Position numbers and translations under genes: made by a program. The notes under the pieces are model-generated. The model saw nothing but the letters and a program-made list of their open reading frames with translations, did not search any database and was not told where the DNA came from. From Phycisphaeraceae bacterium (GTDB lineage Bacteria > Planctomycetota > Phycisphaerae > Phycisphaerales > Phycisphaeraceae), in the NCBI GenBank assembly GCA_963674705.1, contig OY771506.1, positions 2,528,001 to 2,592,000 on the forward strand: a stretch of 64,000 bases of DNA, in the 5' to 3' direction. Numbering within the stretch: position 1 is the stretch's first letter; each line of letters opens with the position of its first letter. Positions 11,702-63,990 of the stretch are shown here, in pieces.

Positions 11702-12136
11702 ATGACGACAGAAAACGCATCCATGTCCTCGGCCGTCGTCCTCGAGTCTGAGAAGAAGGTGTTCTCGCTGGAGCACGCGAACCGTGCGTTGCCGTATATC
11801 TCTCGCATTGTTGATGATATCACGAGCGTGTATGCACGGATCATCGAGTTGCGTCGCAGCGCGGATAGGCCCGGCGGGGCGGATATCGAGACCGAGCGAG
11901 CGTATGAAAAGACGATGGACCGGCTCGGTGAGTTGGTGGATGAATTGCACGCGGTGGGCGTGGAATTGAAGGATTTTGAGCTGGGATTGGTAGATTTTCC
12001 CGCGATCCACCAGGGCCGGGATGTGCTCTTGTGCTGGAAACGCGGCGAGAAGACGATCGCCCACTGGCACGAAGTCGATGCGGGGTTATCCGGACGTCAG
12101 TCCGTGAACCTCTTGCGGGAGCCTCGCGCCGCATAA
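11702..12136 (+). CDS. DUF2203 family protein
   Basis: FSLEHANRALP and GLVDFPA...LLCWKRGE...HWHEVDAGLSGR motifs. Confidence 0.85.
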   Translation: MTTENASMSSAVVLESEKKVFSLEHANRALPYISRIVDDITSVYARIIELRRSADRPGGADIETERAYEKTMDRLGELVDELHAVGVELKDFELGLVDFPAIHQGRDVLLCWKRGEKTIAHWHEVDAGLSGRQSVNLLREPRAA

Positions 12137-50939: not shown

Positions 50940-50968
50940 CTTAAGTCGGATGTGAAAGCCGACGATGA
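50940..50968 (+). promoter_or_regulatory. Sigma28(FliA)-like promoter upstream of the GT39-like gene
   Basis: TAAG-N15-GACGATGA (consensus TAAA-N15-GCCGATAA); shares GCTTAAGTCG with 52937-52946. Confidence 0.55.
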
Positions 50969-51037
50969 CGATCAAACCGGCTGTAACGTTTGTATCGATC
51001 GGCGAAGCCGCCCGTAAGCCGGACAGGAGCGACCAAG

Positions 51038-52711
51038 ATGTGGTTTCTGCCAAGTAGCAAGCAAAACAGTGCTGTGAACGAAGCGATCAATGCGCCCGAG
51101 CCGGAGGTCGAGGTTGCTGTACGTCCTGACCGCGTGACGCCACTGCCTCAGGCACGGGCCAAGTCTGAGTATGAGGAATCGCAGGCGGTGTATGTCACGC
51201 TGATCTTCTTCGCCGCGATCACACTGCGCATTCTGTTTTTTGTGCTTGGACCCTATGGCGACAGCGAACGTGCGATGTACCCGGATTCCTACCGGTACGT
51301 GGAGTTGGGCGAGACATTGGTCAGCGATGGCGTGTTTGGGATAACCAGTCCGGAAACCGGTGTTGTCCATGAGCCGCTGTATGAGCTGCGTGAAGAACTG
51401 GGGCAGTTGGAGCCTTCGATCGATGGCGGGCTGCGGCCGGAGATCATGCGGACACCCGGTTATCCCGCGCTGCTGGGATTAGTCGCGTGGTCGGGAGTGG
51501 GGATCAACGGTTTACTGATCGCGCAGTGTCTATTCGGAGCGATATCGGTTGTCCTGGTGTATGGCATCGGTAGGGTGCTGTTGAAGCGGCCCGGTCCGGC
51601 GTTGTTCGCGGCAGCCATTGTTGCGATCCACCCTGCGGCGCTTGTTGCGCCGACATCCGTCCTGACCGAGTCGTCTTTTACCTTGTTGATACTGCTTGGC
51701 CTGTGGGCGGTCGCGGATCGTGAGAAACGTGGTATCGGCAGAACAACCTTTGGTGGCATGATGATCGGCCTGAGTGTGCTTGTTCGGCCGGTTTCGATCT
51801 TCCTGGGACCCGCGGTAGCGATCTGGATGTTTGCTACGGATCGGCGGTTTAAGACGGCATTCCTCGCGATCCTGATGCTGGGTTTGTCATTGGCGCCCGC
51901 TGTCGGATGGATGGCACGGAATAACTCGATCGGCTTCGGCTATCGTCTGAGCAGCATCCCGTATATCAATACCTACTTCTACACCGACGCTTACATGCGA
52001 ATTACCGAGCAGGGCGGGGACTGGAAGCAGGATTGGCCCGCCACCGTCGACACGCTTATGGGTGAACTGAAAGCAGAACAGAATCTGAATCCGCATCAAG
52101 ATGTCTACGTCACGATGGAAGACCTGGGCGTTCAGGCGATCAAGGACGATCCCGGGCTCTATGGCAAAGTCATGCAGGAGAGCATGATCAAGTTCTTTAC
52201 GGATCATTCATTGGGTGGGATGTATCAGCAGCTTGGTTTGACGTACACACCGTCAGGCCTGCGGGACAAGTTGATGTCCGGCGGTTTCTCATGGCAGAAT
52301 CTTGTGGATACCTTGAAGAATCCTACGGGCTGGCTGGCGTTGAGCTGGTCGGCATTCAATGGTTTATTGCTCATCGGGATGATCCTCGGCAGTGTGATGC
52401 TATTGGTTCGTCGCCATTGGCCGGCATTCCTGCTGCTGGGGGGAGTGATGTTCTACTTCGCCTTTGCTACACAGGCGACGGGGCTTGAGCGTTTCCGCCT
52501 GCCGGTGTTGGGCATTCAGGCCCTGCTGGTTGCGTCATTGTTTGCTCCACGTCGGCAGAAGCCGCAGAAGAGCAAGGACAAGACTCCTAAGCGCCGTTGG
52601 TACGAGCGGGCCGTAGATGGTGATGAGCCGGACGATGAAGCAAAGTCGGATAAAACCACACCGACGCTAGAAGCTGAACCGGAACCGGAATCACTGGCTC
52701 GGCCGATTTGA
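51038..52711 (+). CDS. Membrane glycosyltransferase, GT39/ArnT (GT-C) like
   Basis: PDSYRY loop, RTPGYPALL, LTESSF, LVRP, many TM segments; RBS AGGAG. Confidence 0.8.
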   Translation: MWFLPSSKQNSAVNEAINAPEPEVEVAVRPDRVTPLPQARAKSEYEESQAVYVTLIFFAAITLRILFFVLGPYGDSERAMYPDSYRYVELGETLVSDGVFGITSPETGVVHEPLYELREELGQLEPSIDGGLRPEIMRTPGYPALLGLVAWSGVGINGLLIAQCLFGAISVVLVYGIGRVLLKRPGPALFAAAIVAIHPAALVAPTSVLTESSFTLLILLGLWAVADREKRGIGRTTFGGMMIGLSVLVRPVSIFLGPAVAIWMFATDRRFKTAFLAILMLGLSLAPAVGWMARNNSIGFGYRLSSIPYINTYFYTDAYMRITEQGGDWKQDWPATVDTLMGELKAEQNLNPHQDVYVTMEDLGVQAIKDDPGLYGKVMQESMIKFFTDHSLGGMYQQLGLTYTPSGLRDKLMSGGFSWQNLVDTLKNPTGWLALSWSAFNGLLLIGMILGSVMLLVRRHWPAFLLLGGVMFYFAFATQATGLERFRLPVLGIQALLVASLFAPRRQKPQKSKDKTPKRRWYERAVDGDEPDDEAKSDKTTPTLEAEPEPESLARPI

Positions 52712-52937: not shown

Positions 52938-52981
52938 CTTAAGTCGTCCCCCTTTAGAGTCGATACAACTTGTGCCGATCG
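52938..52981 (+). promoter_or_regulatory. Sigma28(FliA)-like promoter(s) upstream of wzm
   Basis: TAAG(52940)-N15-GTCGATAC and an overlapping TAGA(52955)-N15-GCCGATCG. Confidence 0.55.
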
Positions 52982-53043
52982 TAACGGTTGTAACGTCTGG
53001 GCGCACCGCGCCTTGGATGTGGTGGTCCGTCAGGAGTTAAGGT

Positions 53044-53922
53044 TTGTCCAGCACACCGATCCCAACGCAGCTATTTGCCGGCCCGGATAAGGCCGAGGCG
53101 TCACTCGTGACGGTGATCAAGCCGCAGCGAGGTCTGTGGGCATTGGACCCGGTCGGACTGTGGCGTCGTCGTGAGCTGGCGTGGGTGCTTGCATTGCGAG
53201 ACCTGCGCGTGCGGTATAAGCAGACACTGCTCGGGATCGCCTGGGCGGTGATTCAGCCTTTGGCGACAATGGTGGTGTTACACATCTTCTTCGGGCGCGT
53301 GATGGGCATGGCAGAGAAGGTCGGCGATGTGCCTTACCCCGTGTTTTTGTATGCGGGACTCTTGCCTTGGACATTGTTCTCTAATGCGGTGACTGCATCG
53401 AGCAATAGCCTGGTCGGCAACGCGCATATCCTCAGCAAGGTTTATTTTCCCCGACTGTTGTTGCCTTTATCCGCCACGATCGTGCCGGTGATCGATTACT
53501 GCATCGCTTTTATTGTGCTGGCAGGATTGATGCTCTGGTTCCAAGTGCCTTTGTCTTGGGACATGGTCCTGTTGGCGCCGCTGGTGGTCTCGACCATTAT
53601 CGCGGTGCTTGGGGTTGGGATTCTGCTTGCGAGTCTGACCGTCAGCTACCGGGACTTTCGTTATGTGGTCCCGTTCATGTTGCAGTTGTGGTTTTTCATG
53701 ACGCCGGTGATTTATGGTCTGGACTTCGTGCCGGAGCGTTACCAGTGGCTGATGAACCTGAATCCGATGGCGGGCACGATCGATGCCTTCCGCGCGGTTG
53801 TGTTAGGCCAACCAGTGAACTACGCGGCGTGGCTGGTTTCGACGACCTCTGCTGCGTTGACGCTGGTGATCGGTCTGATGTGGTTTGCCAAGCTCGAACG
53901 GAAGTTCGCGGACGTGGTGTGA
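53044..53922 (+). CDS. wzm: Polysaccharide ABC transporter permease
   Basis: RDLRVRYKQTLLGIAW, KVYFPR, YRDFRY, FMTPVIY, LNPM; TTG start with AGGAG. Confidence 0.93.
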   Translation: MSSTPIPTQLFAGPDKAEASLVTVIKPQRGLWALDPVGLWRRRELAWVLALRDLRVRYKQTLLGIAWAVIQPLATMVVLHIFFGRVMGMAEKVGDVPYPVFLYAGLLPWTLFSNAVTASSNSLVGNAHILSKVYFPRLLLPLSATIVPVIDYCIAFIVLAGLMLWFQVPLSWDMVLLAPLVVSTIIAVLGVGILLASLTVSYRDFRYVVPFMLQLWFFMTPVIYGLDFVPERYQWLMNLNPMAGTIDAFRAVVLGQPVNYAAWLVSTTSAALTLVIGLMWFAKLERKFADVV

Positions 53923-53935
53923 TTAGGTATTACGT

Positions 53936-55216
53936 ATGAGCCAACCGGCGATCCAGGTTGAAGGTTTGAGTAAAAAGTACCGTCTAGGTCAGACGCGTAC
54001 GCTGCGCCAGCGTTTGGCTTCGATGTTGCGTGCAACGAATACAGAACAAGCGGATTCATTGCAATCCGGGACATTCTGGGCGCTGCGTGATGTATCATTC
54101 AGTCTGCAGCCGGGGCGCGTGCTGGGAGTGGTTGGGCACAACGGAGCGGGCAAGAGCACGCTGTTGAAGTTGCTTTCGCGGATCACAGACCCGACTTCAG
54201 GATCAGCCGCGATCCGTGGACGGGTTGCTAGCCTGCTGGAAGTTGGCACGGGATTTCATCCCGAACTGACGGGTCGTGAAAACATCTTCCTTAATGGTGC
54301 GATCCTCGGCCTGAAGCAGAACGAGATCAAGCGGCACTTTGAGCGTATCGTGGACTTCGCTGAGGTGGGTCGTTTTCTGGATACGCCGGTGAAGCGTTAT
54401 TCAAGCGGTATGTATGTACGGCTTGCTTTTGCTATCGCGGCACATCTTGAGCCGGAAGTATTGATCGTCGACGAGGTGCTGGCGGTGGGAGACGCATCTT
54501 TCCAACGCAAATGCTTAGGCAAGATGGGAGATGTAGCCAGAGGTGGTCGTACGGTTGTGTTTGTCAGCCACAATATGGCGGCGGTCCGCAATCTGTGCCA
54601 TGAAGCGATTCTGTTAAACAGCGGATGTATCGAACGCCACGGCAACACTGATGAGGTCATTGACGCCTACCTGAACCGGATGTTTGCCGGCTCATCTGAT
54701 GATGGTGAAATTGGTTGGGACCTGCCCGACGCGCCGGGGGGCGAAGAGGTCCGTTTGCTGCGTGTTCGGGCAATCGATGAGGCGGGATCGCCGCGTGGTG
54801 TGTTCGATCTGTCCGAAGATATCCGTGTTGAGATGACTTACCGTGTGCTCAAACCCCTTGAAGATATGCGCTGGGTGATCAAGGTGATTTGTGACGATGG
54901 TTCGATCGCCTTGGCGACAACGGATCACACTCAACGTGAACCTGGCACAAAGCCGGGTGTTTACTGTAGCACGTGCATCATCCCCAGGAAGTTACTCAAT
55001 GCCGGGCGGTACAGCTTGCGGATCAATGCGGGATGTCCCGGCATCAAGGAGTACGTACCGGGGCAATCATTCATCCGGTTCCAGACAACCCGATCGACGG
55101 ATCATGGCTCATACTACGCTGAGAAGTGGCCGGGTGCAGTTGCTCCTTCCCTTGAGTGGGAGCAGCAGACTGTTGAACAGGCAAATGCTGATGAGACGAT
55201 CCGAGAAGCCGCTTAA
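53936..55216 (+). CDS. wzt: Polysaccharide ABC transporter ATPase with C-terminal Wzt_C domain
   Basis: GHNGAGKSTL, FHPELTGREN, YSSGMYVRLAFA, DEVLAVGD, plus a C-terminal extension. Confidence 0.95.
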   Translation: MSQPAIQVEGLSKKYRLGQTRTLRQRLASMLRATNTEQADSLQSGTFWALRDVSFSLQPGRVLGVVGHNGAGKSTLLKLLSRITDPTSGSAAIRGRVASLLEVGTGFHPELTGRENIFLNGAILGLKQNEIKRHFERIVDFAEVGRFLDTPVKRYSSGMYVRLAFAIAAHLEPEVLIVDEVLAVGDASFQRKCLGKMGDVARGGRTVVFVSHNMAAVRNLCHEAILLNSGCIERHGNTDEVIDAYLNRMFAGSSDDGEIGWDLPDAPGGEEVRLLRVRAIDEAGSPRGVFDLSEDIRVEMTYRVLKPLEDMRWVIKVICDDGSIALATTDHTQREPGTKPGVYCSTCIIPRKLLNAGRYSLRINAGCPGIKEYVPGQSFIRFQTTRSTDHGSYYAEKWPGAVAPSLEWEQQTVEQANADETIREAA

Positions 55217-55229
55217 GGAAGGGTTCGCG

Positions 55230-56063
55230 ATGCGTTGGATCGATAAGTTATGGCGATCGGAGCGGGAGTTTGAGCAAGACGGTAGCACTGCGCGCCCCAG
55301 GATATATGACGATGACCTGTTTCTCGTGTCTTATCCGAAGTCGGGCAACACGTGGATGCGTTTTTTGCTGGCGAACCTGATGCGCATTGATCTCGAAGGG
55401 TTTGATGCTGAGCCGATTGACTTCAATTCAGCGGTTCAATACGTGCCGGAATATGAATTGCATACTGATGCAGTAGATGCCGCAGCCCGACCTCGGATCC
55501 TCAAAAGTCATACGGAATATGATGCGAGCTTCCCGCGTGTCGTGTATCTGGTACGTGATCCGCGAGATGTTTATGTTTCATATTACCATTACCTTCGCAA
55601 AAGATTGCCGGAGGGTTTTACCCTTAATGACTTCTTGCAGAAGCAAGACCTGCACCCGTGTCATTGGCATGAACATGTGACGGGTTGGATCGATCAGCCC
55701 AACGTGTTGACTATCCGGTACGAAGACATGCTGGCCGATACAGCGATGCAAGTGCATAATCTCGTGGCTTACTGGCGTCAACGCGGTTTTACAGATGAAC
55801 AAATCGATGTGGCCGTGAGTCGCTCTTCATTCAATAACATGAAACAAATCGAACAATCCGGCGGTCGACCATTCCGTAGCGAGCGGCACCGCGAGCTTTC
55901 AACCCCCTTCATGCGAAGTGGAAAAGCCGGGGCCTGGATGCGGCATTTTAGTGAAGGTGACCATCAACTACTGATAGATCGGATGGGCGAGCAGATGGCT
56001 CGCCTTGGCTACGACACCGAATATCCAAGCAGTAACTTGGAAGTAGTTAATAATGCAGTTTGA
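55230..56063 (+). CDS. PAPS-dependent sulfotransferase
   Basis: 5'-PSB SYPKSGNTW, KSH, 3'-PB RDPRDVYVS, RYEDM, FMRSGKAGAW. Confidence 0.93.
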   Translation: MRWIDKLWRSEREFEQDGSTARPRIYDDDLFLVSYPKSGNTWMRFLLANLMRIDLEGFDAEPIDFNSAVQYVPEYELHTDAVDAAARPRILKSHTEYDASFPRVVYLVRDPRDVYVSYYHYLRKRLPEGFTLNDFLQKQDLHPCHWHEHVTGWIDQPNVLTIRYEDMLADTAMQVHNLVAYWRQRGFTDEQIDVAVSRSSFNNMKQIEQSGGRPFRSERHRELSTPFMRSGKAGAWMRHFSEGDHQLLIDRMGEQMARLGYDTEYPSSNLEVVNNAV

Positions 56064-56110
56064 TTCTACTGAGCGCAAGAGACAAGAATAAATTGTGGTT
56101 GAAGTGAATA

Positions 56111-58339
56111 ATGCTACAAGAACTTCTACATGACACGTTGACAATGACATCTGTTGTAGGTAGAGACCTGCGACGGCGTTGGCTGTCCTCTGTCATGCCC
56201 AAGAAGCCGACCACGATCAATCTACTGGTCAACGATATCTGCAATTCTCGTTGCGTGATGTGCAATATATGGCAACAGAAGCGAGATAAGGAATTTACCC
56301 CCGATCAGTTGGCATCCATCCTTATGGATGAACTCTATAGCCGGGTTGAGTATGTGGGTGTATCCGGCGGCGAACCGACACTGAGGCGGGACCTGCCCGA
56401 GTTGTTCAGTGTAATCTGCCGAAAATTACCGAGCCTCAAGGGTACGGGCATTATTACCAACGCGATACGTGACCAGGATGTGATCGAACGTGTCGAGGCA
56501 TCCGCCAAGATCTGTGCCACAAGGCATATCGACTTCAATGTGATGGTATCGCTTGATGGTCTCGGTGATGTGCACGACCAAATACGCGGTAAGAGAGGTA
56601 ACTTCGAATCCGCGATCCGTGTGATTGAAGACTTCAAGAGTCGATTGCACCTGCCCTTATCGGTTGGGTGCACTGTTACCAAGACGAATCTCTGGCACGT
56701 CGGTGAGTTACTCGAGTACTGCAAGGCTAACGATATCTACGCCCGCTTCCGCATCGGCGAGTTTGTGCAAAGGCTGTATAACTTCGGACAAATGGCCCAC
56801 ATCCGTGGCTTCAATGATGATGAGTCTTATCATCTGGCGATGTTCTTCACGCAACTCGACCGGGAATACGAGACGCGAAACGCGGTTCGTAGAACGTATC
56901 GTAATATCGCCGGTATGCTGCTAGGGCGGCCGCGTCAGACAGCCTGTCCGTATCAGGATCAGGCGGTTGTACTTGATTGCCGGGGCAACCTTCAATACTG
57001 CGCGCCGAAGTCGAACACAATCGGCAACGCTTTAGAAGATTCATCTTTTAAAGTGTTTGTCCGCAAGCTGGATGAACGAAATCGCATCCGTAAAAAGGAT
57101 TGTGCGACCTGTATCCACGATTATCACGGGCGGCTTACCCGCGGAGAATGGCTAGGCGAAGTGACCGCCAAGTATTGCGGCCGGGCGCTCAGTATACGAA
57201 ACGCTTTACGTCTGGCGAACCGTTTGCCTGCTCGTGAAGGGGAGGCCCCCTCTGACGGACCCGGCAGCATTCTGATCACTGGATGGTACGGCACAGAGAC
57301 GGTCGGAGACAAAGCTATCTTGGGTAGCATCGTCAATGACTACAGGTCGCGTTATCCGGAAGCACGTATCAGTGTGACGAGTCTGTATCCTTTCGTGACT
57401 GAACGCACGTTGCGAGAGCTTGGTGTCGATGCACAGGTCATACCCGTGTACAGCCCGCGATTCTTCAAGGCGTGTGCAACGCACGATGAACTGGTCATGG
57501 GTGGCGGGCCTTTGATGGACCTTGGTGAATTGGGTGTGATTCTGGCTGCATTCGCTATCGCTGCTGCTGCGGGTAAACGGCGTGTGGTATATGGCTGTGG
57601 GCTCGGACCGTTGAAGGATGCTTCCTGTATTGAGGCGGTAAAGCGCATTCTGGGATTAGCGGACGAGGTGATGCTGCGTGATAACGCCAGTGTCGTATGG
57701 GCGATGGAATTGGCCGGCCGTGATGATATTCAGCAAATAGCTGACCCGGCAGCATCCTATGTCACCCATCGCCGTGAAACACTGCCGAGCGTGGTTAAAC
57801 AGCCTGTGCTCGCATGCTTTCTGCGTCAGTGGCCTGCTGGGTACCGCGGTTCACGCTCGGTTGATGAATATGAGCAGATGCGCGAGCAGTTTGAGCAAAG
57901 GCTTGGAGAGCAGGTGCATCAAGCATGTGAATCGCTTGGGTTGAGACCCGCGCTCTACAGCATGCATACTTTCTTTGAGGGGTGTGATGATCGTCGCTTT
58001 AATCGCAGCTTTGCAGACAGGTATCTGACAGAATTAAATCCAATCGTTGATATTCGTCCGTCTAGCGTGGATTCTATTGTCCAGGCAATGCTAGGTGCGC
58101 AGGTGTGTTTATCAATGCGATTCCACTCGGTTTTGTTTGCTTACACTCTCGGCAAGCCATTTGTTGCAATCGACTATACTCAAGGCGGTAAGATCAAAGG
58201 CTTCCTGACAGATCACGACGCATCGGATCGGATGGTGTGTCTGGACGATGTGATCAATAGTGATGCAGCACTACTGACAAACCATTACGCAAAGCAGGGT
58301 GTTGTGCCTCGAGTTGCCCCAGAGGGGGTGGCTGCATGA
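56111..58339 (+). CDS. Radical SAM (SPASM/twitch)-polysaccharide pyruvyltransferase-like fusion protein
   Basis: N-half: CNSRCVMC, SGGEP, SLDG and a Cys-rich auxiliary region. C-half: ITGWYGTETVGDKAIL, MGGGPLMD, GCGLGP, LRD..S, ADPA, MRFHS. Confidence 0.85.
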   Translation: MLQELLHDTLTMTSVVGRDLRRRWLSSVMPKKPTTINLLVNDICNSRCVMCNIWQQKRDKEFTPDQLASILMDELYSRVEYVGVSGGEPTLRRDLPELFSVICRKLPSLKGTGIITNAIRDQDVIERVEASAKICATRHIDFNVMVSLDGLGDVHDQIRGKRGNFESAIRVIEDFKSRLHLPLSVGCTVTKTNLWHVGELLEYCKANDIYARFRIGEFVQRLYNFGQMAHIRGFNDDESYHLAMFFTQLDREYETRNAVRRTYRNIAGMLLGRPRQTACPYQDQAVVLDCRGNLQYCAPKSNTIGNALEDSSFKVFVRKLDERNRIRKKDCATCIHDYHGRLTRGEWLGEVTAKYCGRALSIRNALRLANRLPAREGEAPSDGPGSILITGWYGTETVGDKAILGSIVNDYRSRYPEARISVTSLYPFVTERTLRELGVDAQVIPVYSPRFFKACATHDELVMGGGPLMDLGELGVILAAFAIAAAAGKRRVVYGCGLGPLKDASCIEAVKRILGLADEVMLRDNASVVWAMELAGRDDIQQIADPAASYVTHRRETLPSVVKQPVLACFLRQWPAGYRGSRSVDEYEQMREQFEQRLGEQVHQACESLGLRPALYSMHTFFEGCDDRRFNRSFADRYLTELNPIVDIRPSSVDSIVQAMLGAQVCLSMRFHSVLFAYTLGKPFVAIDYTQGGKIKGFLTDHDASDRMVCLDDVINSDAALLTNHYAKQGVVPRVAPEGVAA

Positions 58340-59619
58340 GGGTGCTGATTCTTTGTGATGTACAGCGGAAGGGTGGTGCTGGGATCGCCGCGCACAGGCT
58401 TGCCTCTGCGCTTACTCTGTATGGTCATGAGGTGCACTGGGCGACACCTTATCCCACTTCCTCGTGTGACATCACGACACACAATTGTCGTGAGTATTCC
58501 ACGGGTGCGCGTGTTATACACAAAGCTCTCAACATGTTGCAGCCTGCCAGACGTCAGACTTTCGAGTCACATGCGATTGTTCGTCGCCTGAAGCAGATTG
58601 TCAGCGATATCAAGCCGGATGTTGTGAACGTACATAACCTTCACGGCGCATCGTTGCCTGCCACTCTCCCGGCCGAATTGTCGCAGATCGTGCCTGTTGT
58701 GTGGACGTTACACGATATGTGGGCGTTCACCGGCACATGTGCGTATTCGATGGGTTGCCGAAAGTTTGAGTCATACTGTGATAGTCATTGCCCGATGGCG
58801 GATGAGTATCCAAGCAGCCCGGCCTCTCAGGTGGGGTACCTCTATGAACAGCGCAAGAAAGCTTTGGCGGAAGCGGGTCGGTTAGCATTTGCCACCCCAT
58901 CCCAATGGCTGGCTGATGAAGCAGTCAAGGGGATGCTGAATGGTTTTGATGTTAGGGCGATTCCCAACTGCATCGAGTTGGACCAATTTGTCCCGGTTGA
59001 TAAGGATGCCGCACGTCAAGGATTGAATCTGCCGCTTGGTCGGCCGGTTCTTGTTACGACAGCTACGCCGGGTGATCCACGCAAAGGTGCTTCTGTTTTG
59101 TATGAGGCGATGAAACTGTTGGGGCGCCCGAATACGATCATGCTTCAGCTTGGCGGTGATTATAAAAACGGTGTTGAGCATTGGGACCATCGCGTGCTTG
59201 AGGGTGTAGATGACCCCCGACTCATGCGCATTGTCTACAGCGCCGCCGATGCACACATCCTGCCGACGCTTGCGGATAACCTGCCTAACACCTTGCTGGA
59301 AGCAGCCGCCTGTGGCGTGCCAAGCATCGCGTCGGATGTCGGAGGTGTGGGTGAAGCGATCATCAATAGCGAAACCGGATGGCTGGTCCCTCCATCAGAC
59401 GCAGATGCGCTGGCTCAAAAGATCGGTGTCGCGATCGACCTCAACGTCAAACACAATCAGGCGATCCGTACCAGATGCCGGGCATTTGCTGAAGCCCAAT
59501 TCGCTCCTGCGATTCAAGCAAAACGTTACACCGAACTATTTGAGCAGACGATCAATCAAGATCTGGCTCAAAATGACATTCTTACGCAAATCAGTTCAAT
59601 GAGCGGGGAGGCTGCGTAA
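58336..59619 (+). CDS. Glycosyltransferase family 4 (WcaC-like)
   Basis: GGAGIAA, HNLHG, WTLHDMW, DPRKG, DNLPNTLLEAAACG. Confidence 0.92.
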   Translation: MRVLILCDVQRKGGAGIAAHRLASALTLYGHEVHWATPYPTSSCDITTHNCREYSTGARVIHKALNMLQPARRQTFESHAIVRRLKQIVSDIKPDVVNVHNLHGASLPATLPAELSQIVPVVWTLHDMWAFTGTCAYSMGCRKFESYCDSHCPMADEYPSSPASQVGYLYEQRKKALAEAGRLAFATPSQWLADEAVKGMLNGFDVRAIPNCIELDQFVPVDKDAARQGLNLPLGRPVLVTTATPGDPRKGASVLYEAMKLLGRPNTIMLQLGGDYKNGVEHWDHRVLEGVDDPRLMRIVYSAADAHILPTLADNLPNTLLEAAACGVPSIASDVGGVGEAIINSETGWLVPPSDADALAQKIGVAIDLNVKHNQAIRTRCRAFAEAQFAPAIQAKRYTELFEQTINQDLAQNDILTQISSMSGEAA

Positions 59620-60500
59620 TGTCCAATACTGTTCAGCAACCAAAGATCAGTGTTGTCATGGTCGATGGCGCGTTCCGTGAGCGGTACGACTCGATCGACT
59701 TCATGGCAAAGCAGAACCTGCCTGCTGACAGATACGAACTGATCTGGGTTGAGTACTTCGACAAGATTGATCCTGACTTGCAACAGCGGATCGACACTGC
59801 GAGTAAGACGCATAACTTTCGAACAATCACGCTGGGCCGGAAGGGGCACTACCATTCATCGTATTGCTTCAATCGGGGGATAATCGAGGCGAAGGGTGAA
59901 CTGCTCGTCATCCCCGACGCCGATGTCATTGCCGAGCCTAACTTCCTTGAAAAGGTATTACAGGATCACGCCGGGTATGACCGGCTTGTGACATATTATC
60001 ACCGGTACAACGAGCCCGAATCACAGCGGGCAGAACAGGTTGATATCGAACATCTACGAGATGTCTGCGAACTGACGAACCCCTCAAACCATGGGGCATG
60101 CATCGCGACACGCCGCAAGTGGTTTATCGAGATTAATGGCTACGAGCAGAGCCCCATCTTCGCAACAGGTTTTCACGCCAATGATAAAGATGTCTATGCA
60201 CGGCTATGCAGTCTTGGCCTGATGGTTCGTTGGAACCCGGATGTGAAACTCTATCATCCCTGGCACGCAATGACCGGTGAACTCACACCACACTACAAGC
60301 CACAGCTTGATGTCATCAGTTGGCGCGGGCGAACTTTGTCCACACGGCCATTCCAGGGCCTGGTTACATCGCTCAACACGATCCCACCGCAGCGTTACAT
60401 CGATATTGAGAACTGGTTGAAGTCTATTGATGAGCCCAGGTGGAAGAAGGTCGCGGGTAAGTTACGCAAGATCGCGGGTATCGAAAGGCGGGCGGCATGA
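59619..60500 (+). CDS. Glycosyltransferase, GT-A fold (family 2-like)
   Basis: NRGIIEAKGELLVIPDAD, INGYE, YHPWH. Confidence 0.8.
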   Translation: MSNTVQQPKISVVMVDGAFRERYDSIDFMAKQNLPADRYELIWVEYFDKIDPDLQQRIDTASKTHNFRTITLGRKGHYHSSYCFNRGIIEAKGELLVIPDADVIAEPNFLEKVLQDHAGYDRLVTYYHRYNEPESQRAEQVDIEHLRDVCELTNPSNHGACIATRRKWFIEINGYEQSPIFATGFHANDKDVYARLCSLGLMVRWNPDVKLYHPWHAMTGELTPHYKPQLDVISWRGRTLSTRPFQGLVTSLNTIPPQRYIDIENWLKSIDEPRWKKVAGKLRKIAGIERRAA

Positions 60501-61432
60501 GTGAAGTTAATCCTGGTGCTGGCGGCAAACCAAGGGTGTCTGTGTTGATGCCCGTCTATAATGCGCAGGCTTATCTTGTGGAAGCAATCGACTGTATCCT
60601 CGCACAGACCTTTAGCGATTGGGAGCTGATCTGTGTCAATGACGGCTCAACCGACGCCTCACAAGCGATCCTCGATAGTTACGCCAACAGGCATTCACGT
60701 ATCCGAGCGATACATCGGCATAATACGGGTATTGTCGGTGCACTCAACGATGCGTTGGATGCGGCTAACGGCGAATACATCGCGCGTATGGATGCTGATG
60801 ACTGGTGCGCGGAAGTCCGCTTTCAGCAACAGGTGAAGTACCTAGATGAGCACGTTGATTGTGTCGCTGTTGGTACGTATGTGCAGCGGACTGATCCTTA
60901 CGGCTCACCGGCCGGTTCGCAGGAGCCGCCAACCGATCACGAGACTATTGATGCGGCATTACTCGCGGGTGATGCCAGTGCATTGGTGCATGCGAGTCTT
61001 ATGATGCGCGCCGATGCACTCCGATCGATAGGCGGCTGGCGAGAGGGTACGGATTGGGTCGAGGATCTGGATCTGTTCTTACGCTTGGCAGAATACGGTA
61101 AACTCTCAAACCTGCCACAGTATCTCTATATCTACCGCCGACATGCACAAAGTGTCTGCTTCAATCGGTATGAGTTGATGTGTCGGCGGTTGAAAGAGGT
61201 ATTGAGAGAAGCCTACGAACGGCGGGGCATTATCAAGCAATACGATGAGCAGATGATCCGCCCGGACCTGGCGCCGAAGCAGTCGGTAGCAGAGCACTAC
61301 CGCAACTGGGCGTGTTATGCGATCCATGCTGGCAACGGCACACTGGCTCGCAAGCATGCGATCGATGCACTGAAGCGTTCCCCGTTATCACCACGAACAT
61401 GGAAAGTCGCTTACTGGGCTTTGGCAGCCTGA
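60497..61432 (+). CDS. Glycosyltransferase family 2
   Basis: VSVLMPVYN, NDGSTD, ARMDADD, EDLDL. Confidence 0.93.
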   Translation: MSEVNPGAGGKPRVSVLMPVYNAQAYLVEAIDCILAQTFSDWELICVNDGSTDASQAILDSYANRHSRIRAIHRHNTGIVGALNDALDAANGEYIARMDADDWCAEVRFQQQVKYLDEHVDCVAVGTYVQRTDPYGSPAGSQEPPTDHETIDAALLAGDASALVHASLMMRADALRSIGGWREGTDWVEDLDLFLRLAEYGKLSNLPQYLYIYRRHAQSVCFNRYELMCRRLKEVLREAYERRGIIKQYDEQMIRPDLAPKQSVAEHYRNWACYAIHAGNGTLARKHAIDALKRSPLSPRTWKVAYWALAA

Positions 61433-61436
61433 AGCC

Positions 61437-62225
61437 GTGAGGTATCTGATGAGCCTGAAGACAATCAAACAAGCCTACTGGCGATTGCTGAATGCCTGGA
61501 ACAAGCGCCGGCATCCTGTCAGTGTTGACTATTCGCCGCACCCGTTTCTCGATGGCATCGAGCGCAATCTCCCAACGGATCATGACGGAATCGTGATGGT
61601 CGATGGTGGAGCGCATGACGGACAGATGGCCAAACGTTTTGTCGAGCGATTGCCGGGCTTACAGGTACATTGTTTCGAGCCTAACGCCGACTTGTTCCCG
61701 AAACTGCAGCAAAACCTTGCAGGCATTCCAGGTTCGCGACATCAACTTGCACTATCCAGCAAGACGCAGACGCTGAAGATGTTCATCAATGATTCTCCGA
61801 TGACAAGTTCCGTGTTGCCCCGCAATGAGAACAGCGAACGATACTTTGATGCCGTCACACGGATTAAAGAAGTCCGTGAACTGAAGGCAACAAGTCTCGA
61901 CGACTGGTTCGATCATTCGGGCTTGGACCACGTCGACATCATCAAGCTGGACCTCCAAGGCTATGAGCTTGAGGCACTCAAGGGGGCCAGGCGTCTCTTA
62001 GCACGTGGCGTAGCTTGTATCTATCTCGAAGTGAATTACGTGCCTTTCTATGAAGGCTCCGCAACGTTCGGCGAGATCGATGTCTTCATGCGAAGCTGCG
62101 GTTACAAGCTGTTCAATTTATACAACACATGCACGCACTTGCCTGAAGGGCACATCGGGTCGGGTGATGCGCTATACGTGTCGGATGTTACAGCGAATGT
62201 ACAACAGCTCAGGGAGGCTGCATGA
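61437..62225 (+). CDS. FkbM family SAM-dependent methyltransferase
   Basis: VDGGAHDG, FEPN, KLDLQGYELEALKGA. Confidence 0.92.
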   Translation: MRYLMSLKTIKQAYWRLLNAWNKRRHPVSVDYSPHPFLDGIERNLPTDHDGIVMVDGGAHDGQMAKRFVERLPGLQVHCFEPNADLFPKLQQNLAGIPGSRHQLALSSKTQTLKMFINDSPMTSSVLPRNENSERYFDAVTRIKEVRELKATSLDDWFDHSGLDHVDIIKLDLQGYELEALKGARRLLARGVACIYLEVNYVPFYEGSATFGEIDVFMRSCGYKLFNLYNTCTHLPEGHIGSGDALYVSDVTANVQQLREAA

Positions 62226-63106
62226 GTCGAAGCGCCTCCATTCCGCCGCATCCACCCGTGACAGCGATCGTGATCTATCGAAACGAGAAGCGTCACCTGG
62301 AAAGATGCCTGCTCGCGTTGCGCTGGTGCAATGAACTCATCGCAGTTGATATGGAATCAAGCGACGGCTCGCGAGAAATCGCACAGGACCTGGCTGACCG
62401 TGTCTTGAGTGTGCCACAGTGTCCGATCGCAGAGCCCACGCGTGTTGCGGCTGCGAGGCTGGCAAAGAATGACTGGGTTCTGCTGGTCGATCCCGACGAA
62501 GTGATACCGCCGACGTTATCTGATGATATCCGTGCTGCTTTGGCGGCGAATCCGAACGCCGGAGCATTCAGTCTTCCGATGTGGTTCTACTTCAAAAGCA
62601 AACGGCTCACAGGAACGGTCTGGGGCACGCTGACGTTCAAGCAGCGTCTGATTCACCGTAAGCGTTGTGACCTGTTGCCGCTTTGCAATCGGATCAGCCA
62701 GATCAAGCCGGGTGAACAGGATGTCCGCATCCAGCACGACGGCGACAACCACATGCGGCACTACTGGTCTGATTCGTATCTCGATCTGCTGCACAAGCAC
62801 TTCGTGCGCTATTCGCATACCGAAGCGGCCGCGATGGTCGCACAGGGTAAGCTGTTTAATCTTAAGCTGGGTTTCATTGCACCATTTGTAGAACTAAGAA
62901 GGACGCTGAAAGACTTTGACGGCTGGCGTATCGGGTTCCGCGGCTGGGCGCTTAGCGGTATTTACTTCGGGTATGTCCTGGCAAGCCATTGGTTGACACT
63001 GTATTACCAATGGAAGGGCGCACCACCTGAAAAACCGGAATTACGCGACCTGCCGGTGTTGACCGACATCACCGACAGGCCGACCACGGAAAGGGCGGCG
63101 GCATGA
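62222..63106 (+). CDS. Glycosyltransferase family 2
   Basis: RNE..L..CL, VDMESSDGS, WVLLVDPDE. Confidence 0.9.
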   Translation: MSRSASIPPHPPVTAIVIYRNEKRHLERCLLALRWCNELIAVDMESSDGSREIAQDLADRVLSVPQCPIAEPTRVAAARLAKNDWVLLVDPDEVIPPTLSDDIRAALAANPNAGAFSLPMWFYFKSKRLTGTVWGTLTFKQRLIHRKRCDLLPLCNRISQIKPGEQDVRIQHDGDNHMRHYWSDSYLDLLHKHFVRYSHTEAAAMVAQGKLFNLKLGFIAPFVELRRTLKDFDGWRIGFRGWALSGIYFGYVLASHWLTLYYQWKGAPPEKPELRDLPVLTDITDRPTTERAAA

Positions 63107-63990
63107 GTAACGCACCACACCTGCCAAGCATCACGATCATCACGCCAAGTTTCAATCAGGCAGCGTTCCTTGAACAGACGATCCAGAGCGTGCTCAGCCA
63201 GGGATACCCGGCTCTGCAGTACGGCATCATTGATGGTGGATCAACCGACGGCTCCATCGATATCATCGAACGCTACCGCAAGCAACTCGACTTTGCGGTG
63301 ATTGAAAAAGACAACGGCCAAACAGAAGCAATCAATAAGGGGCTAAAACAAGCCAAAGGCGAGATCGTTGGATGGCTATGCTCTGATGATACACTGCTGC
63401 CGGGCGCGCTGCAGACGGTTGGGACGCACTTCATGCATCAGCCTAAGGATGATTGGCTTGCCGGTGCATGCGCCATGATCGACATCGATGGTAAACAAGA
63501 GAGCGTCATCCGACCCGGCGGCGTGTTCACACTCGAAGGGATCCTCTTGCGCAGTGATGAACATCCATTTAACCTGCCTCAGCCCGGTGTGTTCTGGCGT
63601 CGAAGCCTGCATGACCAATTGGGACTTCTGGATGAGTCTCTGCATTACTGCATGGACTTCGAGTTCTGGCTGCGCCTGGTATCCGCCGGTTACCGCCCGA
63701 CATTGATCAACGATACCCTCGCCACCTACCGTCTGCATGATTCGAGTAAGAGCTGCGCCGCACCGATGGGCTTCATACGCGAACACATCGAGGTCGAAGG
63801 GGAATATGCCAAGTCGCTGCCGTTAATGCAGCGGATGCAGGTTGCCAGGCGCTTAGGTTACATGCATCGTGCGAGTGTTTTAAATGCGGCCGGCTGCAAC
63901 CCATGGAGCGAAGTCGCCCGACGGCCGTGGTGGCTCCTTTCGCAGCAGGTACGTGAAGCGCTACGCCACGGACCGCGTAAAGCGGCTTAG
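63103..63990 (+). CDS. Glycosyltransferase family 2 (WfgS-like)
   Basis: ITPSFNQ, DGGSTDGS, GQTEAINKG, WLCSDD, MDFEFWLR. Confidence 0.93.
   Translation: MSNAPHLPSITIITPSFNQAAFLEQTIQSVLSQGYPALQYGIIDGGSTDGSIDIIERYRKQLDFAVIEKDNGQTEAINKGLKQAKGEIVGWLCSDDTLLPGALQTVGTHFMHQPKDDWLAGACAMIDIDGKQESVIRPGGVFTLEGILLRSDEHPFNLPQPGVFWRRSLHDQLGLLDESLHYCMDFEFWLRLVSAGYRPTLINDTLATYRLHDSSKSCAAPMGFIREHIEVEGEYAKSLPLMQRMQVARRLGYMHRASVLNAAGCNPWSEVARRPWWLLSQQVREALRHGPRKAA

Follow-up and report, generated by a model that had tools for sequence, protein, structure and literature searches.

We analysed a stretch of 64,000 nucleotides (nt) from a Phycisphaeraceae bacterium (contig OY771506.1, positions 2,528,001 to 2,592,000; hereafter the window) and found that in one of its operons nearly every soluble enzyme ends in Ala-Ala (AA). 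By its Pfam matches the operon holds the gene set of a Wzm/Wzt glycan pathway, with wzm and wzt accompanied by glycosyltransferases and modifying enzymes. The AA tail pattern is real, selected and, among the loci read, specific to the family, and judging from sequence the tails are likely to be ssrA-like degrons for ClpXP. An earlier annotation of the same DNA, made without database searches (the sequence-only reading), had quoted nine C-termini, eight of them AA and four of these with codons, beside a membrane subunit that lacked one. All are present in the sequence, the end of Wzm being ADVV, and the pattern is larger than claimed: 8/9 genes become 9/10, because a further glycosyltransferase of family 2 (GT2), GT2 (e), lies just beyond the window and ends PLRKAA.

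AA ends are not common in this genome, a point on which the sequence-only reading depended. Using a hexamer-based gene caller built for the genome (4190 genes, 82% coding; stops are reliable, starts less so), we counted 122/4190 genes with AA ends (2.9%), which is 3.1 times the rate of internal Ala-Ala dipeptides. Against this background the binomial probability of at least nine AA ends in ten genes is 1.5e-13, and the highest count in any window of ten genes was six when labels were shuffled 2000 times. The background of 2.9% and the shuffles lead us to reject chance and a genome-wide bias. Nor is the tail a general glycosyltransferase trait, since outside the operon 4/23 GT2 and 3/28 family 4 (GT4) enzymes end in AA, above background and far below the operon. 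The hyp/hyd/nifJ operon, cited earlier as an internal control, has AA at none of its 12 called genes. Its ATGA-ending genes do lack AA, as had been said, although a fourth such gene, ending QYA, had been missed.

The pattern extends across the family. Within the family of the window, 127 of 144 genomes gave a match in a Wzt search, and we read 41 family loci (40 listed matches picked by score and contig room, plus L008, which groups with them) by walking each operon downstream from wzt. AA ends were found in 233/426 genes of these wzm/wzt loci. Because the walk also picks up stray open reading frames (ORFs) and genes lying beyond the operon, the family counts are underestimates. Behind an AA-ending Wzt 194/301 genes ended in AA, compared with 7/84 behind the nine other Wzt. 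A further 20 loci, among them some chosen because a GT2 (c) orthologue lay close by or because they held a genome's second Wzt, gave 18 chains with AA in 74/166 genes. In the five genomes with an untagged first locus in which a second locus was read (G047, G060, G134, G077, G110), the second was tagged in every case. Overall, three or more AA ends within one locus were seen in 30 of the 37 genera sampled; no AA end occurs in three loci of genus g3 or in one of g19. In a Wzt tree, which was a quick search including one in three control sequences, six of the nine family Wzt without AA grouped with Wzt of Chloroflexota and Acidobacteriota (SH-aLRT, a likelihood-ratio branch support, 94), and these six are therefore likely to be a different lineage.

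Outside the family the tail is rare. The closest Wzt loci outside Planctomycetota carry AA at 7/586 genes (75 of 77 loci), and loci from other planctomycete families, taken from best Wzt matches only, at 10/406, made up of 0/44 in the order, 5/204 in the class and 5/158 in the phylum. A phylum- or class-wide trait was thus not found in these 38 Wzt chains (from 40 loci). One GT4 of the pathway, whose gene belongs to the tagged cluster in other genera, is extended and ends in AA in 5/5 family genomes, whereas in other families the same enzyme stops at its fold without AA in 11/11 genomes. The expectation that orthologues would keep AA under a different gene order is borne out within the family and fails for the orthologues of other families. 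Genes in variable positions are tagged as well. In the nearest relative (L110) three other genes, with the ends MQAA, TLAA and KRAA, take the place of the sulfotransferase and of the radical SAM fusion described below. Inserts on the opposite strand, present in five relatives (L112, L113, L117, L121, L122), likewise end in AA.

Gene by gene, retention follows the same lines (orthologue counts include the window's own gene; family names are from Pfam, the Wzt_C match being below the Pfam cut-off and one GT2 match weak). All genes lie on the + strand, and coordinates are those of the window unless prefixed G000:C1, which gives contig positions in the window's genome (G000). The ABC-2 membrane subunit gene wzm (53044..53922) has AA in 0/39 homologues. 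It is followed by wzt, encoding the ABC ATPase with the weak Wzt_C match (53936..55216; end IREAA), with AA in 32/41 family loci, and by the sulfotransferase gene (55230..56063), the untagged exception, which ends NNAV and has AA in 1/5 orthologues. A fusion of radical SAM and polysaccharide pyruvyltransferase domains (56111..58339; EGVAA) keeps AA in 6/6 orthologues and the GT4 enzyme (58336..59619; SGEAA) in 6/7. For GT2 (a) (59619..60500; ERRAA) the count is 10/10 and for GT2 (b) (60497..61432; WALAA), which is without a free tail, 9/18. The FkbM methyltransferase (61437..62225; LREAA) has AA in 15/15, GT2 (c) (62222..63106; ERAAA) in 17/17, GT2 (d) (63103..63990; PRKAA) in 17/20 and GT2 (e) (G000:C1:2592267-2593217), the next gene on the same strand, 276 nt past GT2 (d), in 18/18. 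From wzm to GT2 (d) the gaps between successive genes are 13, 13, 47, −4, −1, −4, 4, −4 and −4 nt. The gap between GT2 (d) and GT2 (e) holds a terminator-like hairpin (L161:2066-2091), and in several relatives an opposite-strand gene, FkbM-like in three, stands between these two and also ends in AA.

With genes spaced this tightly, the dipeptide might arise at the nucleotide level, as a by-product of coupled translation, of overlap with a Shine-Dalgarno sequence or of the context of termination where DNA is rich in GC. NNA codons are favoured by ATGA overlaps in bacteria generally (PMC7246954), and at position −1 of the AA ends GCA is indeed over-used (72/226). In overlapping genes, Arg at −4 is coded AGG or AGA in 29/52 cases, which counts against a purely protein-level origin and indicates that a need for Shine-Dalgarno sequence contributes there. 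However, four-base-overlap genes end in AA in 76/96 cases in tagged loci and in 2/155 in untagged and control loci, while 129/197 non-overlapping genes end in AA, as do 14/32 chain-final genes. Genome-wide, ATGA-ending genes do so in 15/438 cases. Synonymous codons at the penultimate Ala are unbiased (GCC 92, GCG 83, GCA 27, GCT 24; close to internal use), and without an overlap Arg at −4 is coded CGN in 53/58 cases. The opposite-strand inserts are tagged, and the GC content of the operon is below that of the window. Overlap therefore shapes codons (GCA at −1, AGG at −4) and is not the source of the dipeptide; as the only cause it is rejected on the overlap and codon counts, and the by-product explanation as a whole is largely refuted and very improbable. 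The earlier statement that four AA ends in the operon have no ATGA overlap is correct, although the GT4 gene among them does overlap its neighbour through TAATG, which leaves its last codon unconstrained.

Among orthologues the length of the tails and their residues −5 to −15 vary widely while AA is kept; such variable tails beyond the fold, accessible and flexible, with medians of 6 to 25 residues, are found in Wzt, the radical SAM–pyruvyltransferase fusion, GT4, FkbM and GT2 (a), (c), (d) and (e). The AlphaFold model of FkbM has a mean pLDDT (model confidence) of 89, and its last 12 residues, which come after the last strand, have values of 62 and 52. By a hydrophobicity proxy 300/301 downstream genes encode soluble proteins, consistent with a cytoplasmic C-terminus. 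In the genome AA ends are depleted in likely exported proteins (those with a single N-terminal hydrophobic segment), at 2/467 against 66/2483, and a periplasmic tail-specific protease is for this reason an unlikely reader.

Comparison with transfer-messenger RNA (tmRNA) tags fits ClpX as the likely reader. The tmRNA tag of the window's genome ends RMAA, and the tags of the family end in AA in 30/30 cases with Arg at −4 in 26/30. Arg at −4 is likewise found in 110/233 AA-ending genes compared with 29/193 others (p 8e-13), so that the tails match the family tag at −4, −2 and −1 and often read R-x-A-A. Class-wide, tmRNA tags still end in AA in 27/29 loci, and the families therefore differ in the use made of the tag. 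The tags of the family and some relatives (L170-L199, L266, L268, L274, L281, L285, L286) have about 17-23 residues and a GRIGF-like motif, a possible adaptor site, and those of other families of the class are short. When the ClpX of the genome was aligned to a solved ClpX, the GYVG, ITRDVSGEG and RKH loops were unchanged, and equivalents were kept of all six residues given for Ala-Ala recognition (Y153, V154, T199, V202, R228 and H230; PMC7652416). ClpP, ClpC, ClpB, Lon, HslU and FtsH were found in the genome by sequence motifs.

Tagged loci also share an element upstream of wzm. A motif search recovered TAAG, 15 nt, a G[AT]CGAT[AG] box, 5 nt and up to three YGTnnCG repeats with a 9-bp period; the window copy spans 52939-52995. 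From its likeness to known promoters the element is predicted to be of sigma-28 type. The promoter part (52939..52966, +) reads TTAAGTCG, 12 nt and GTCGATAC, and against the Chlamydia sigma-28 consensus quoted in PMC8762339 the −10 box matches at 8/8 positions and the −35 box at 5/8, with the 12-nt spacer. Three repeats (52971..52995, +) lie directly 3' of the −10 box and are a likely operator. A first −10 candidate, GCCGAT at about 52973, was dropped, as the footprint in relatives puts the −10 box at 52959. The strict promoter pattern was found in 19/31 tagged compared with 0/7 untagged loci of the derivation set (a count that leaves out L120 and L141), in 6/13 tagged and 0/3 untagged new loci, and in controls in 0/27 other planctomycete and 1/47 non-planctomycete loci. 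The genome has one FliA/WhiG gene (TIGR02479 match over cut-off). The region upstream of wzm gave no Rfam match and a folding z of −0.44, on which grounds an RNA element was rejected.

A related word marks AA genes elsewhere in the genome. In front of operons that contain AA genes, CCGATA ranks first among 6-mers (33/87 compared with 289/2637), and with the wzm/wzt operon left out GCCGAT[AG] precedes 23/82 compared with 177/2602. Nine other terminal dipeptides showed no link of this kind (best p 0.02). The full repeat array is a weak genome-wide mark, with 6/82 AA operons above its 95th percentile.

Among 66 proteins scanned by family (a selection from the 122 AA-ending proteins, together with neighbours), those ending in AA include CheW, CheA, CheY, CheB, FapA, CheV, one methyl-accepting chemotaxis protein (MCP), FliK and MotA; a PilB/GspE ATPase and PilZ, GGDEF-EAL, HD-domain, STAS and MerR-like proteins; and further GT4 and GT2 enzymes, a polysaccharide deacetylase and a phosphofructokinase. 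AA rates are 5/7 in the che operon, 4/12 for MCPs and 7/29 for receiver-domain proteins. A strict coupling of the tag to chemotaxis is unsupported, as five genomes with a tagged Wzt locus (G082, G054, G071, G078, G102) have no CheW match; all five have flagellin and four have a FliA match over the cut-off.

Taken together, these observations lead us, with moderate confidence, to a timed model in which the tails are ClpXP degrons, a sigma-28-type promoter limits synthesis to one lifestyle phase and the pathway is cleared as a unit. FliA/WhiG would transcribe the operon, with a protein bound head-to-tail on the 9-bp repeats gating transcription. In the cytoplasm the enzymes would build a lipid-linked glycan and modify it by methylation, sulfation and pyruvylation, and Wzm/Wzt would export the product. 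Once transcription stops, ClpX would grip the free Ala-Ala carboxylate and ClpP destroy each enzyme, with chemotaxis, motor and cyclic di-GMP (c-di-GMP) proteins carrying the same tail cleared together with them. The membrane partners Wzm, the PMT-like protein encoded upstream of wzm and the Wzy_C ligase would remain untagged. Degron tails and a phase-limited promoter would in this way allow the pathway to be built in a pulse and cleared as a unit. Candidates for the product are an O-antigen, a protein glycan or a matrix; candidate glycan transferases are the PMT-like protein and a Wzy_C protein among AA-tagged neighbours elsewhere in the genome.

The sequence-only reading had placed such turnover in a short developmental or cell-cycle window. 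The sigma-28-like promoter supports a time-limited programme, while a cell-cycle role is unsupported. Relatives of sigma-28 control late flagellar genes, and development in Streptomyces and Chlamydia (PMC4598750). Cultured family members are mostly motile and form matrix or aggregates. Neither stalk nor holdfast is present in those examined for them, and division is mostly by binary fission, with inconclusive observations for the rest (PMC8882080, PMC7783415). On these grounds a motile-versus-matrix lifestyle switch is the likelier expression window. We also suggest, tentatively and with rather less assurance than for the timed model, that in Phycisphaeraceae one sigma-28-type factor turns on a whole phase-specific proteome, comprising surface glycan synthesis, chemotaxis, motor and c-di-GMP proteins, that nearly all of its soluble members are ssrA-tailed for a hard-wired destruction of the entire regulon, and that any gene entering the glycan operon is driven to evolve the tail.

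Other readings of the tail were weighed against the timed model. The tails could be constitutive ClpXP degrons that keep enzyme levels low or remove subunits outside a glycan-synthesis complex, with no lifestyle timing. This would fit all the degron evidence equally, the promoter is assigned purely by likeness, and no clear promoter copy was found at the flagellin genes of the genome, which also speaks against the timed model. Nevertheless the promoter element travels with the tagged loci and the AA set is rich in the chemotaxis, motor and c-di-GMP functions listed above, and we consider constitutive turnover unlikely. Somewhat less likely again is that R-x-A-A is a docking signal, for a cytoplasmic scaffold of PDZ- or TPR-like type or for remodelling by ClpX, by which the enzymes are gathered and not destroyed. 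A tail common to all members of one pathway is what enzymes of a complex might carry, many tails look weak by E. coli rules (PMC10862746), and the depletion of AA in exported proteins shows only that the reader is cytoplasmic. However, the motif agrees at −4, −2 and −1 with the tmRNA tag that the family itself uses, so that ClpX could hardly ignore it, and the tail is found in unrelated systems such as chemotaxis and signalling. We think it more doubtful still that degrons of this kind are read chiefly by another AAA+ protease of the genome (ClpCP, Lon, FtsH or HslUV), since strong Ala-Ala tags needed ClpXP in an E. coli screen (PMC10862746) and the ClpX pocket is intact.

Several further observations weigh against timed destruction by ClpXP. 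In E. coli the terminal Ala-Ala is necessary and not sufficient, 39% of AA pentapeptides being weak, and the favoured degron motif has Leu at −3 (PMC10862746). Leu at −3 is present in 27/233 tails and unenriched, so most miss the E. coli optimum, and the upstream motif of the family tmRNA tag is in 0/233 enzyme tails; for these two reasons the enzyme tails may be weak or adaptor-dependent. Retention of AA is low in GT2 (b) and the sulfotransferase. Loci are related by kinship and thus not independent, and they were picked by Wzt score and contig room, some of them for a GT2 (c) orthologue close by. Housekeeping-type proteins such as phosphofructokinase end in AA too, and tagged operons occur in the five genomes without a CheW match, one of them also without a FliA match over the cut-off. 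As to the promoter, the −10-like word, present at CheV and some MCPs, is enriched on the reverse strand also (30/86 compared with 444/2602), and the −35 box is weak genome-wide (3/82 compared with 14/2602).

By sequence the tails fit among ClpX degrons, whose native Ala-Ala form is reportedly the C-motif 1 of Flynn et al. 2003. They differ from ssrA and the native Ala-Ala degrons in that nearly every soluble enzyme of one biosynthetic operon is tagged, that the tail follows the lineage's own tag with Arg at −4, and that newly arrived genes are tagged too. The nearest likenesses are Streptomyces sigma-AntA, with a conserved Ala-Ala end (67/71 orthologues), ClpXP control of a pathway and stabilisation of AntA by an AA-to-DD change (PMC7142297), and Caulobacter CtrA, with an encoded Ala-Ala end under ClpXP control (PMC8138137). 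In both a single regulator is tagged, whereas here it is the enzymes themselves, about ten per operon. E. coli LpxC, which FtsH degrades through its C-terminal tail, places envelope glycolipid synthesis under a C-terminal degron (PMC8138137), but at one committed step and with a different protease; here the whole operon is concerned. The capsule of Caulobacter, a surface polysaccharide, is confined to one portion of the life cycle, and control there runs through the restriction factor HvyA and, as far as the opening of the abstract goes, without enzyme degrons (PMC4241560).

In the literature we found no case in planctomycetes and none of operon-wide tagging; the Flynn 2003 and Bhat 2013 substrate lists and subscription papers may hold partial precedents. 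The native Ala-Ala degrons described so far in the literature found sit on single regulators or committed steps. An operon tagged enzyme by enzyme across about 30 genera, incoming genes included, would be a different design, in which shut-down is achieved by clearing every catalyst. The life cycle of the family is barely described, and the regulon-wide programme suggested above, if true, would amount to a developmental switch new for FtsZ-less planctomycetes and recognisable simply from how their proteins end. AA ends give a candidate list of ClpXP substrates, and a likely sigma-28 regulon, without recourse to anything but sequence. In practice, attempts to produce these glycosyltransferases in E. 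coli may be unsuccessful if the tail is left unmasked.

Further features touch on the same element and tail. A second sigma-28-like promoter copy in the window (50942..50967, +; two window matches compared with 0.04 expected) precedes the PMT-like gene, promoter and repeat element together occupying 50942-51000. The gene downstream, encoding a PMT_2-family membrane glycosyltransferase (50990..52711, +), is untagged, with AA in 0/10 orthologues, and within the genus usually lies next to wzm on its upstream side. One flagellin gene (G000:C1:2683066 region, L257) is preceded, at a distance of about 240 nt, by two TGTnnCG repeats with a 9-bp period, and these in turn by a looser promoter-like pair. 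A 113-residue MerR/HTH_17-like protein ending EQAA (L162:11268-11606; G000:C1:2891267) adjoins flagellar genes and is a candidate head-to-tail binder of the 9-bp repeats.

Elsewhere in the genome, a cluster at G000:C1:3.173-3.179 Mb (L155:10914-16943) includes two ATPases and a weak tyrosine-kinase GNVR match, Wzc-like by eye; three of its genes end in AA, and its promoter is again of the TAAG-N15 form. Two further glycan loci (L159:11440-14470 and L160:7588-14962) have AA ends on GT4, GT2 and methyltransferase proteins; other genera carry the first within their wzm/wzt cluster, and the second holds an untagged Wzy_C ligase-like protein. The remainder of the window has 39 called genes, of which just one ends in AA; it encodes a DUF2203 protein (11702-12136; EPRAA) and has a GCCGATA word about 100 nt upstream. 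Ten of the 122 AA-ending genes are copies of one transposase-like ORF ending PPLAAA (for example C1:20799-21638), and several integrase-like ORFs end RKAA or STAA, both labels being given by eye. Finally, about 290 proteins of the genome have a PEP-CTERM-like C-terminus by a regular expression; they could be glycan acceptors, and they likely explain why RR is the commonest terminal dipeptide in this genome.

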